A stretch of DNA of 64,000 nucleotides from Lysobacteraceae bacterium (lineage in GTDB: Bacteria > Pseudomonadota > Gammaproteobacteria > Xanthomonadales > Xanthomonadaceae). This document shows, piece after piece, positions 27,192 to 55,226 of the stretch. Position numbers and translations under genes: made by a program. Every line of letters begins with the position of its first letter. The first letter of the stretch is position 1. Below the pieces are notes generated by a model that did no database searches, was not told the origin of the DNA, and was given only the letters and a program-made list of their open reading frames with translations. The stretch spans positions 26,204-90,203 of the forward strand of contig JAGWUF010000001.1 in the NCBI GenBank assembly GCA_028868545.1. Reading direction: 5' to 3'.

Positions 27192-27243
27192 TTCCTTCTC
27201 CCCGCCGTGCGGGGAGAAGGTGCCCGCAGGGCGGATGAGGGGC
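27192..27243 (+). repeat. 52-bp palindromic dispersed repeat, intergenic copy
   Basis: TTCCTTCTCCCCGC-CGT-GCGGGGAGAAGG-TGCCC-GCA-GGGC-GGATGAGGGGC; nearly identical to 53406-53456. Confidence 0.9.
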
Positions 27244-51608: not shown

Positions 51609-54600
51609 ATGCCAGCTCGTTTCGTCCACCTGCACCTGCACACCGAGTTCTCGCTCGCGGATTCCACCATACGCGTGCCCGAGAAGCCGGACTATGCGCG
51701 CCCCGAAAAGGCCGGCGATCGGCCCAACCTGCTCAGCCGTGCGCTGGAGCTGCAGCTGCCGGCGCTGGCGGTGACCGACCGCAACAACCTGTTCGCGCTG
51801 GTCAAGTTCTACAAGGCGGCGGAAAGCGTGGGCATCAAGCCGATTGCGGGTGCCGACGTGCTGGTGGCCGACGGCGGCGACGCACCTTCGCAACTCACCC
51901 TGCTGTGCCGCGACCAGGACGGTTATCTCAGCCTGTCGCGCCTGCTCAGCCGCGCTTGGCTGGAAGGCCAGCGCGGCGACTGCGTGGCGATCGATCCGGA
52001 GTGGCTGCGCGACGACCACGCCGGCCTGTTCGCGATCGCCGGCCGCCAGAGCCTTGCCGGGCGGCTGGTGCAGGCCAATCGCCACGACGTGGCCGAAGCG
52101 CAGCTGGCGGAATGGCGGCGGGTGTTCGGCGACGACCTGCACCTGGAACTGACCCGCACCGGCCGCGACGGCGAGGAGGCGTTCAACCAGTTCGCCCTGC
52201 ACGCATCGTCCAAGCTCGGCCTGCCGGTGGTGGCCAGCAACGACGTGCGCTTCCTCGATGCCGCCGGCTTCGGCGCGCACGAGGCGCGGGTGTGCATCGC
52301 CAGCGGTCGCGTGCTCGATGATGCCCGCCGCCCGCGCGACTACAGTGCGCAGCAGTACCTGCGTTCGACCGAAGAGATGGTCGCGCTGTTCGCCGACGTG
52401 CCCGATGCGCTGGACAACACGGTGGCGCTGGCGCAGCGCTGCAACCTGCAGCTGAAGCTGGGCACCTACTTCCTGCCGGCCTATCCGGTGCCGTCCGCCG
52501 AGACGCTGGACAGCTGGATCCGCAGCGAGGCGCGCCGCGGCCTGGAAGCGCGGCTGCAGAAGAATCCATTGGCGCCCGGCAAGACCCGCGAGGACTACGC
52601 CGCGCGGCTGGAATTCGAGCTGGACACCATCATCAAGATGGGCTTCCCCGGCTACTTCCTGATCGTGGCCGACTTCATCCAGTGGGGGAAAAATCAGGGC
52701 ATCCCGATCGGCCCCGGCCGCGGTTCCGGCGCCGGCTCGCTGGTGGCGTGGGCGCTGCAGATCACCGATCTCGACCCGCTGCCGTACAATCTGCTGTTCG
52801 AACGCTTCCTCAACCCGGAACGCGTGTCGATGCCCGACTTCGACATCGACTTCTGCATGGATCGGCGCGACGAAGTCATCGACTACGTCGCCCGCAAGTA
52901 CGGCCGCGACCGCGTCTCGCAGATCATCACCTACGGCACCATGGCCGCCAAGGCGGTGCTGCGCGACACCGGCCGCGTGCTCGGCTTCGGCTACGGCATG
53001 GTCGATGGCATCGCCAAACTCATTCCCAACATCCTCGGCATCGCGCTGAAGGATGCGCTGGGCCGGGGCAAGGGCGGGATGGACGGCGAGATGGCTTCGC
53101 CCGAGCTGATCCAGCGCTACGAAAGCGAAGACGACGTCCGCGACCTGATCGACCTGGCGCTGCAGTTGGAAGACCTCACCCGCAACGCCGGCAAGCACGC
53201 CGGCGGCGTGGTGATCGCGCCGACGCCGCTGTCGGATTTCTGCCCGCTGTACGCCGAACACGACCACGGCACGCTGGGCAAGAACCCGGTCACCCAGTTC
53301 GACAAGGACGACGTGGAAGCGGTGGGGCTGGTGAAGTTCGACTTCCTCGGCCTGCGCACGCTGACCATCATCGACTGGGCGGTGAAGGCGATCAACAAGA
53401 GGCTCTTCCTTCTCCCCGCAAGCGGGGAGAAGGTGCCCGAAGGGCGGATGAGGGGCGTCGTGGACGGCAAACTCGACATCGCCGCAATCCCGCTCGACGA
53501 CGCCTCCGTCTATCGCAACGTGTTCGCCAACGGCAATACCGGCTCGGTGTTCCAGTTCGAATCCTCCGGCATGCGGCGCGCGCTGAAGGACGCGAAACCC
53601 GACCGCTTCGAGGATCTGATTGCGCTGAACGCGCTCTATCGCCCCGGCCCGATGGAGATGATCCCCTCGTTCGTGGCGCGCAAACACGGCAAGGAGCACT
53701 TCCACTACCCCGACCCGCGCACCAAGGACATGCTGCAAGAGACCTACGGCATCATGGTCTACCAGGAGCAGGTCATGCAGATGGCGCAGATCGTCGGCGG
53801 CTACTCGCTGGGCGGCGCCGACCTGCTGCGCCGCGCGATGGGCAAGAAGGTGCCGGCCGAAATGGCCAAGCACCGCGAGATTTTCCGCGAGGGCGCGGCC
53901 AAGGGCGGGGTCAGCGCGGCCAAGGCCGACGAGATCTTCGACCTGATGGAGAAGTTCGCCGGCTACGGCTTCAACAAGTCGCACGCGGCCGCTTATTCGC
54001 TGGTGGCCTACCAGACTGCGTGGCTGAAGCAGCACTACCCGGCCGAATTCATGGCCGCCACCTTGTCCTCCGACATGGACAAGACCGAAAAGGTGGTCGG
54101 CTTCCTCGACGAAGCCCGCGGCCTCGGTCTGACCGTGCTGCCGCCGGACGTGAACGCCTCCGGCTACATGTTCGAGGCCACCACCCCGGACACCATTCGC
54201 TATGGCCTCGGCGCGGTGAAGGGCGTCGGCCAGGGCGTGTGCGAGGCGATCGTGGTGGCCCGCGACGGCGCCGGCCCGTTCCGCGACCTGCTCGACTTCT
54301 GCCAGCGCGTCTCCGCCGCCGGCCTCAACAAGCGCACGCTGGAAGCGCTGATCCACGCCGGCGCGATGGACGCCCTCGCCATCAACCGCGCCTCGCTGGC
54401 GCTGCAACTGCCGGAGGCGATGAAAGCCACCGACCAGATGGCGAAGAACCGCGAAGCCGGCATGTTCGACATGTTCGGCGGTGGCGGCGGCGGCGACATC
54501 CGCGTGGATCTGCCGGAAACCACCGAGTGGCCGCTGGCGCAGCTGCTGCAGGGCGAACACGACACGCTGGGCCACTATCTCAGCGGCCACCCGATGGATC

Positions 54601-55226
54601 CCTGGCGCGACGACGTGATGAAACTGGTGGGGCATGACCTGTCGGCGATCCCCGGTATCTGGGAAAGCGGCGCGCGCGGCCATCGCCCGCAGGAAGGTCG
54701 CAGCTGGCGGCCGATGGTGCAGACCGTGCTGGCCGGCCAGGTGGTCGGCGTGCGCAAGCGCGGCGAGTCGCAGGCATTCGTGCAGCTGGAAGATGGCCGT
54801 GGCCGGATCGAATGCGGGTTCTTCAACGAGCAGTGGCAGGAATTCGCCCCGCTGCTGACCCGCGACCAGATCCTGGTGGTGGAGGGTGGCCTGCGCGAAG
54901 ACGAATTCAACGGCGGCTATTCGCTGCGCGTCAGTCGCTGCTGGAACTTCACCCAGTTGTGCAACCAGCAGGCGCAGCGCATTTCGATCCGCATCGACCT
55001 GCGCCACCCGCAGGCGCTGGGCCGGCTCGAGGACATCCTGAAAACCCGTGCCGGCCCCACCCCGGTGCTGCTGGAAGCCATCACCGCCACCGGCATCGGC
55101 CGGCTGACGATCAATGGCGGACGTGGCCTGCGGATGGACGACAGCCTGCCCGGCCTGCTGCGCAGCCTGCCCGGCATCAGCACCGTCAACGTGCAGTTGG
55201 CGCGGCCGTGGGCGACGGCGAACTGA
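51609..55226 (+). CDS. dnaE: DNA polymerase III alpha subunit, carrying an in-frame repeat insertion
   Basis: PHP HLHLHTEFSL, GPGRGSGAGS, RVSMPDFDID, KFDFLGL, YQEQVMQ and FNKSHAAAY motifs; C-terminal OB fold. Confidence 0.98.
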   Translation: MPARFVHLHLHTEFSLADSTIRVPEKPDYARPEKAGDRPNLLSRALELQLPALAVTDRNNLFALVKFYKAAESVGIKPIAGADVLVADGGDAPSQLTLLCRDQDGYLSLSRLLSRAWLEGQRGDCVAIDPEWLRDDHAGLFAIAGRQSLAGRLVQANRHDVAEAQLAEWRRVFGDDLHLELTRTGRDGEEAFNQFALHASSKLGLPVVASNDVRFLDAAGFGAHEARVCIASGRVLDDARRPRDYSAQQYLRSTEEMVALFADVPDALDNTVALAQRCNLQLKLGTYFLPAYPVPSAETLDSWIRSEARRGLEARLQKNPLAPGKTREDYAARLEFELDTIIKMGFPGYFLIVADFIQWGKNQGIPIGPGRGSGAGSLVAWALQITDLDPLPYNLLFERFLNPERVSMPDFDIDFCMDRRDEVIDYVARKYGRDRVSQIITYGTMAAKAVLRDTGRVLGFGYGMVDGIAKLIPNILGIALKDALGRGKGGMDGEMASPELIQRYESEDDVRDLIDLALQLEDLTRNAGKHAGGVVIAPTPLSDFCPLYAEHDHGTLGKNPVTQFDKDDVEAVGLVKFDFLGLRTLTIIDWAVKAINKRLFLLPASGEKVPEGRMRGVVDGKLDIAAIPLDDASVYRNVFANGNTGSVFQFESSGMRRALKDAKPDRFEDLIALNALYRPGPMEMIPSFVARKHGKEHFHYPDPRTKDMLQETYGIMVYQEQVMQMAQIVGGYSLGGADLLRRAMGKKVPAEMAKHREIFREGAAKGGVSAAKADEIFDLMEKFAGYGFNKSHAAAYSLVAYQTAWLKQHYPAEFMAATLSSDMDKTEKVVGFLDEARGLGLTVLPPDVNASGYMFEATTPDTIRYGLGAVKGVGQGVCEAIVVARDGAGPFRDLLDFCQRVSAAGLNKRTLEALIHAGAMDALAINRASLALQLPEAMKATDQMAKNREAGMFDMFGGGGGGDIRVDLPETTEWPLAQLLQGEHDTLGHYLSGHPMDPWRDDVMKLVGHDLSAIPGIWESGARGHRPQEGRSWRPMVQTVLAGQVVGVRKRGESQAFVQLEDGRGRIECGFFNEQWQEFAPLLTRDQILVVEGGLREDEFNGGYSLRVSRCWNFTQLCNQQAQRISIRIDLRHPQALGRLEDILKTRAGPTPVLLEAITATGIGRLTINGGRGLRMDDSLPGLLRSLPGISTVNVQLARPWATAN
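53406..53456 (+). repeat. 51-bp palindromic dispersed repeat inserted in frame within dnaE
   Basis: TTCCTTCTCCCCGC-AA-GCGGGGAGAAGG-TGCCC-GAA-GGGC-GGATGAGGGGC. It starts on a codon boundary and encodes FLLPASGEKVPEGRMRG (aa 600-616). It differs from 27192-27243 only in the two hairpin loops. Confidence 0.92.

Follow-up and report, generated by a model that had tools for sequence, protein, structure and literature searches.

A REP-like hairpin repeat lies in frame in a DnaE loop that is a recurrent landing place for repeats in the Lysobacteraceae

Results

The dnaE gene and the repeat within it

We analyzed a 64,000-nt stretch of DNA (the window) on contig C80 of the genome of a Lysobacteraceae bacterium (G000; 2.65 Mb in 117 contigs, 66.5% GC). 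The assembly is metagenome-like, with 96% completeness and 3.6% contamination, and the relatives of G000 bear the names Thermomonas or Pseudoxanthomonas (Lysobacteraceae/Xanthomonadaceae). The relevant features of the window are as follows.

51609..55226, + strand: dnaE, encoding the DNA polymerase III alpha subunit and hosting the insert; from the ORF and its translation, 1205 aa
53397..53471, + strand: whole replaced loop, codons 597-621 (KRL + element + VVDGK); 75 nt versus 30 nt (ARRAQEGGEP) in sister species
53406..53456, + strand: 51-nt double-hairpin repeat, residues 600-616 (FLLPASGEKVPEGRMRG); from the in-frame reading, stems identical to the intergenic copy
53408..53433, + strand: hairpin 1, perfect 11-bp stem with a 4-nt loop; from a hairpin scan (perfect inverted repeat) and folding
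53435..53445, + strand: hairpin 2, GCCC-GAA-GGGC, 4-bp stem; from folding, compensated as GGCC-GAA-GGCC in other copies
27192..27243, + strand: intergenic sister copy at the typical place of the family, 10 nt past the stop codon of a same-strand gene

Pfam domains of the 1205-aa DnaE were PHP (7-183), DNA_pol3_alpha (303-581), DNA_pol3_finger (585-765), HHH_6 and OB, and the protein matched E. coli Pol III alpha structures at E 2e-58. A first-pass annotation, made from the letters of the window, had claimed that a 51-bp double hairpin begins at a codon boundary of dnaE. The distance from the dnaE ATG to position 53406 is 1797 nt, exactly 599 codons, and the element reads in frame as given above. 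The insert lies 15 residues into DNA_pol3_finger, directly past the DNA_pol3_alpha core. Its loop, at the base of the fingers domain, is equivalent to E. coli alpha residues ~575-583 and lies approximately 20 residues past the catalytic Asp region (FDFLG). An AlphaFold2 model of DnaE from 52 close homologues was discarded (mean pLDDT 62, pTM 0.39, palm below 50).

Codon usage set the element apart from the rest of the gene, in accord with the earlier remark that it uses rare codons such as AGG and GGG. Within their synonymous sets in dnaE, CTT was used 1 time in 132, GCA 4 in 129, GGG 7 in 114 and AGG 1 in 91 (each 1-6% in the rest of the gene). The element has the most atypical codon usage in the whole of dnaE, its 17-codon window ranking sixth of 1188 with the better-placed windows overlapping it. 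The codons that flank the element, AGG (598) and AAA (621), are likewise rare in dnaE, indicating that the event was not a clean 51-nt insertion. Compared with sister species, 75 nt (53397-53471) replace 30 ancestral nt, with a net gain of 45 nt and 15 residues. The initial description of a 51-bp in-frame insertion thus stands as to the frame and the intact gene, whereas the clean insertion gives way to a 75-for-30-nt replacement. No target-site duplication was found at the dnaE insert.

The stems of the dnaE copy are identical to those of the copy at 27192-27243, and the two differ only in their loops (AA versus CGT, and GAA versus GCA), just as first described. Both copies fold as two hairpins, with energies of -29.7 and -33.5 kcal/mol and z scores of -2.2 and -3.3, respectively, and the dnaE element ends in a short GGATGAGGGGC tail after its hairpins. 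A 32-nt pattern derived from the element has 0.00 chance matches expected in the window. A search of the element region against Rfam returned no family match. We also considered a longer mobile unit that would include the VVDGK flank. This candidate was rejected, as no flank is common to the other copies and the junction is unique among 53 genomes; the 3'-flank similarity of the intergenic twin is native intergenic sequence.

The repeat family in the genome and the genus

A profile built from ten copies detected approximately 21 family copies in G000 at E<1e-3. The family unit is 51-57 nt long and comprises two GC-rich hairpins and a T-rich 5' tail, the consensus being the T-rich tail, CCTTCTCCC-loop-GGGAGAAGG and then TGCCCGAAGGGCGGATGAGGG. 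In some copies the second stem is compensated, with GCCC/GGGC changed to GGCC/GGCC. Thirteen of the 21 copies in G000 lie at most 44 nt past the stop codon of a co-oriented gene (ten of them at most 11 nt), and two of about 21-22 lie deep inside genes, namely those for DnaE and a DsbD-like protein. Of 53 genus genomes, 25 contained an exact 30-nt core; matches per genome ran from 0 to 23, with 0 in G007, the closest complete genome. The expectation of a dispersed, mostly non-coding repeat was therefore borne out. In G043, a complete genome, 9 of 12 copies were co-oriented with replication, a bias that is inseparable from gene orientation.

We compared orthologous intergenic spacers for four copies (the twin at 27192-27243 and those designated C66, C25a and C25b). 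Only C25b had a clean empty site: the element is present in G000, G043 and G015, and an 8-11-nt spacer alone is found in G062 and G007, with no target-site duplication at this site. The other three were rejected as clean empty sites, as the spacers in relatives were filled by other hairpins or REPs; the spacer of the twin was occupied by other hairpins. Intergenic sites are reused elsewhere as well, since the hairpins or GTAG-tagged REPs that fill other spacers vary from species to species. This presence/absence polymorphism, together with the differing contents of the spacers, suggests that the family is mobile or frequently exchanged, with reuse of sites.

The convergent-gene spacer that holds the family copy G000:C66:17016-17066 contains a whole extra gene in G043 and G003, and its ortholog in G007 (locus L215) contains a GTAG-tagged REP pair; at this spacer, intergenic DNA turns over quickly. 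In a separate observation, G009 carried 19 exact 30-nt cores on contigs C27 and C29, 17 of them on the forward strand of the contigs and four within 6 kb on C29, which may form a clustered array.

A second coding copy and other hairpins in the genome

The first-pass annotation had proposed that the repeat may create new peptide segments elsewhere in the genome, and one such segment was found. The gene at G000:C103:13074-15473 on the minus strand, which encodes a DsbD-like protein, carries an in-frame family copy in the linker that joins the second DsbD_N domain to the membrane domain; there the copy adjoins a second, REP-like unit that is also in frame. The DsbD insert is common to G000 and G062 and is absent from G007, G003, G015 and G013.

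A scan of G000 for perfect hairpins found 224 with stems of at least 10 bp, 18 of which lay in coding-like frames and were mostly incidental. At G000:C12:398-424, a hairpin with a perfect 12-bp stem lies within a coding-like frame (…ERTTEESSVVQ…) and may be another intragenic repeat.

G000 contains two Y1-transposase genes of the RAYT/TIRYT-like kind (C45:70537-70869 and C39:19766-20026; L171, L172). Both are flanked by a different perfect palindrome of 45-51 nt (AAAAGGGGACGGAGGGAATTAA...), which constitutes a separate repeat system, so that no cognate enzyme for the dnaE-element family was identified; no copy of that family was found near either gene in this assembly (96% complete).

The empty site in relatives

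Among the genus members with a match, 44 of 50 had a loop of unexpanded length, compared with 25 aa in G000. In the 25 such species in which the loop was read directly it was 10 aa long, with the consensus ARRAREGAEP, and in one more it was 8 aa. The loops of distant genera and of E. coli are similar to the unexpanded one; between INKR and the downstream conserved motif, E. coli alpha has 8 residues and the DnaE of G000 has 23, the very numbers that the first-pass annotation had given for this comparison. In a DnaE tree computed with the loop left out, the sister of G000 was G062, a genome whose loop is empty. Across 10 kb of neighboring DNA, too, no genome is closer to G000 than G062 (86% nucleotide identity). 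In the dnaE flanks of the two genomes there are just two differences in 180 nt upstream and two more in the first 100 nt downstream. The normal loop in G062 and in most genus members indicates that dnaE is the invaded party and that, as judged from these alignments, the insert is probably a recent gain, made after G000 split from its sister. The empty site for which the first-pass annotation had called was thus found, and the segment is no family-wide part of DnaE lacking a multi-copy counterpart, since the sisters are empty and the approximately 21 copies are mostly intergenic.

Three further searches bore on the locus. The 90% protein cluster of this DnaE held C-terminal fragments only, none of which covered the loop; an exact scan of metagenome contigs for the 5' junction gave no match; and a degenerate scan for the 3' flank gave 120 unrelated loci, none of them in dnaE.

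Taken as a whole, these data are very probably best explained by the entry of a REP-like repeat into dnaE in this lineage and its toleration in the loop. The repeat is a small, non-autonomous, REP-like hairpin element that normally sits just past the stop codon of a same-strand gene, and one copy would have entered dnaE in the G000 lineage after the split from the sister species. The site of entry, at the base of the fingers domain, is a surface loop that is short and poorly conserved. The element is open in frame and adds a net 15 residues, which leaves the polymerase gene intact, and the repeat is presumably translated as an extra loop. The insert would then have persisted because nearly every length and sequence can be accommodated in the loop.

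Recurrent expansion of the DnaE loop

The claim that the insert occupies a tolerant loop was strengthened by the variation among relatives, in which the loop ranged from 7 to 73 aa and stood out as the principal site of indels in an alignment of 52 DnaE sequences. In a survey of the family, 400 Lysobacteraceae genomes were sampled and 376 had a match; 26 loops were expanded among the 150 matches listed, so that at least 26 of the 376 sampled genomes carry an expanded loop. Twenty of the 26 were fetched and classified. At least four unrelated kinds of insert were found in the loop, three of them palindromic.

Within the genus, there were at least four separate expansions (G000; G013; G052; and G001/G022/G008). 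The loop of G052 contains a 66-nt palindrome of GGTGATT heptamers, a sequence with approximately 294 matches throughout that genome (L054, L175, L177) and none in G000. The loops of G001, G022 and G008 contain a 51-nt hairpin-like insert, which we call type B (…GRTSVAEGRMPESDR…); no dispersed copies of it were found in these three genomes. Type B was also found in another genus and in a Rhodanobacteraceae MAG, and was seen in G231 (loci L014, L019, L026, L200, L114).

In at least five lineages, the hairpin family of G000 has entered the dnaE loop, each time with one and the same orientation. It was found in the loops of G183 and G322 in the same frame and of G196 in another frame, and a single related hairpin was present in G135. 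Among metagenomic sequences, P0003 (in two independent assemblies), P0113 and P0118 (with the 73-aa loop) carry the same family, again in the same orientation. Heptamer palindromes fill the loop in G432, G268, G115, G422 and G232, simple tandem repeats occupy it in G441 and G278, and the loops of one genus have non-palindromic extensions. Similar palindromic fillings were observed in Nitrosomonadales-like and other proteobacterial MAGs, and the hits extend to some Betaproteobacteria-like lineages. These independent hits by varied repeats indicate that the dnaE loop is a recurrent hotspot, or landing place, for inserts.

Beyond tolerance, the loop could be a preferred integration target, through a DNA feature of the site or a strand-specific mechanism. 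The frequency of expanded loops and the number of unrelated inserts given above are in favor of such targeting, and a 30-nt target is very unlikely to be struck at random by a family of only approximately 21 copies per genome, yet such hits have recurred. The single orientation of the family's dnaE copies also points this way, as five of the six frames are open. Moreover, the empty site, which codes for ARRAR, is an alternating GC sequence (GCGCGCCGCGCGCGC) that is itself hairpin-prone, and intergenic sites too are reused by different repeats. On the other hand, the non-palindromic expansions and simple tandem repeats in the same loop indicate that tolerance by itself plays a part; elsewhere in essential genes, insertions would kill the cell and so escape notice, and no common target sequence or duplication was found among the insert sites. 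We regard preferential integration as possible but rather improbable. The orientation bias does no more than suggest a strand-specific mechanism of movement that involves single-stranded DNA. A wider proposal, that this palm-fingers loop of DnaE is a true hotspot ("safe harbour") for unrelated hairpin repeats across phyla, to which a strand-specific or structure-specific mechanism directs them, or in which they are selected for an effect on the polymerase, rather than simply passing a filter of tolerance, seems doubtful.

A related allele in G013

The loop of G013 (L008/L032) is 25 aa long, as in G000. Between the two genomes, 28 of the 51 nt of the core are the same (null expectation 15.3 ± 3.3; 2 of 1189 in-frame windows reach 28), as are 12 of 15 nt of the 3' flank. 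The copy in G013 has lost the hairpins and uses ordinary codons. In the DnaE tree, G013 is far from G000; its sister is G050, a species with an empty loop. The neighboring DNA of G013 and G000 is 76% identical. G013 thus carries a decayed version of the G000 allele, a finding for which one recent insertion fails to account.

The likeness could have arisen by short-patch recombination between species or by two hits of one family, neither of which fits cleanly. Under the former, a different species of the genus, one with an insertion already in this loop, would have passed the allele to G000 by short-patch homologous recombination, and the G013 allele would be a decayed descendant of the same event. 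The shared loop length, core and 3' flank are consistent with this possibility, as is the position of the two species far apart on the tree, each beside an empty-loop species, and, given how strongly the flanks are conserved, a conversion tract would go unseen. However, a search for such a tract between G000 and G013, in sliding windows and at informative sites, revealed none. Up to the very edge of the loop the flanks of G000 resemble those of G062, G013-like sites are absent next to it, and the 3' junction of G000 is unique among 53 genus genomes. In addition, the copy in G000 is pristine whereas that in G013 is without hairpins, which means that the donor cannot have been G013-like. Transfer of the allele from another species is thus unlikely, and entry of the repeat in the G000 lineage itself remains the preferred reading.

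Discussion

That palindromic repeats, including REPs in DnaE, can lie in frame in genes is already known. Di Nocera, De Gregorio and Rocco (2013, PMC3733652) described in-frame copies of GTAG- and CGTC-tagged REPs in DnaE2, in the DnaE of Rickettsia conorii, and in UvrA/B and PolA; the genes with intragenic REPs were often the sole tagged genes of a genome, and the authors suspected non-random targeting. Like the family of G000, these repeats are short GC-rich palindromes that lie mostly just downstream of genes, with few copies in frame. In contrast to them, the element of G000 has no GTAG or CGTC tag and is a 51-nt two-hairpin unit with approximately 21 copies. That paper gives no account of one DnaE loop hit repeatedly across a family. 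What is new here is that a single DnaE loop has been hit many times by different repeats in related bacteria.

The first-pass annotation had named the Rickettsia palindromic elements (RPEs) as the precedent. The comparison holds, but the closest precedent also includes the REPs in DnaE, DnaE2 and repair genes just mentioned. RPEs, as reported by Ogata et al. (2000, cited in PMC3184786 and PMC3733652), are selfish palindromes that occur in frame in functional, even essential, genes. The same arrangement is present here, with both the dnaE and the DsbD frames open. According to the citing papers, RPEs sit in surface-exposed segments, as the dnaE insert of G000 does in its surface loop, and RPE-1 is 100-150 nt long with many coding copies, whereas coding copies are exceptional in the G000 family (2 of ~22). 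No sequence relationship is apparent and the organisms are unrelated, so that the likeness is by analogy only.

The family shares with the REP/REPIN-RAYT systems (Nunvar 2010, PMC2817692) hairpins at gene 3' ends, an orientation bias, compensatory stem changes and the presence of Y1_Tnp genes in the genome, and differs in that no REP doublets of the G000 family flank a transposase. Set against the properties of REPs, the element is a stable GC-rich imperfect palindrome (11-bp and 4-bp stems, -29.7 kcal/mol), and its copies are mostly extragenic near gene 3' ends (13 of 21 within 44 nt past a stop codon). Both ends of the consensus lack GTAG and CGTC on either strand, neither RAYT gene of the 96%-complete assembly is flanked by the same repeat, and the copy number (~21 in G000, at most 23 core matches in any genus genome) is below the hundred or more per genome of REPs. 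The element therefore works like a REP and is not placed in the GTAG/CGTC REP superfamilies. At 51-57 nt and with no duplication, it departs from a MITE (terminal inverted repeats, target-site duplication, 70-300 nt), nor is it an intrinsic terminator, as on the sense strand its T run comes before hairpin 1, with none following on either strand.

In Xanthomonas, arrays of GGGAATC/GGGGATT heptamer repeats have been described with dnaE among the repeat-associated genes (Rehm et al. 2015, PMC4692102). The heptamer palindromes in the DnaE loops of G052, G432, G268 and others are of this type, which is a repeat family other than that of the element in the window.

We infer that DnaE with the insert is made and active and that the insert is neutral, since the G013 copy has decayed and the inserts in the loop are diverse; the manner in which the element moves is likewise deduced. 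An adaptive insert, which would alter the polymerase (fidelity, processivity or partner binding) or the expression of dnaE through an RNA or DNA hairpin, is in our judgement very unlikely. Di Nocera et al. proposed such a role for REPs in replication and repair genes (PMC3733652), and the proximity of the site to the catalytic Asp region and the intact stems in G000 would be consistent with it. However, unrelated sequences of differing lengths occupy the one loop, the copy in G013 has lost its hairpins as a neutral sequence would, and the sister species does without the insert. An assembly artefact, or a minority strain variant in a metagenome-like assembly with 117 contigs and some contamination, is extremely unlikely even though repeats are classic misjoin sites, because both flanks carry dnaE on in frame as one gene on a 149-kb contig (C80) where a repeat misjoin would join different loci, because the loop sequences of the dnaE copy are its own and unlike those of every other family copy, and because complete genomes contain equivalent insertions, as do two independent assemblies of another species.

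Entry of a REP-like repeat into dnaE and its toleration in the loop would mean that selfish hairpin DNA can become new peptide in an enzyme that is both essential and highly conserved. The expansions mark one permissive loop of Pol III alpha that may be usable for tags or insertions, and caution that such segments of DnaE are to be annotated as repeat-derived rather than as lineage-specific domains. The recurrent hits lend support to the suspicion, already in print, that REPs do not lodge in replication genes at random, and the dnaE loop gives a defined place in which target choice can be weighed against tolerance. If the loop is a true hotspot, the pristine copy, the decayed copy and the empty alleles of sister species would form a tractable system for the entry of hairpin repeats into coding DNA.
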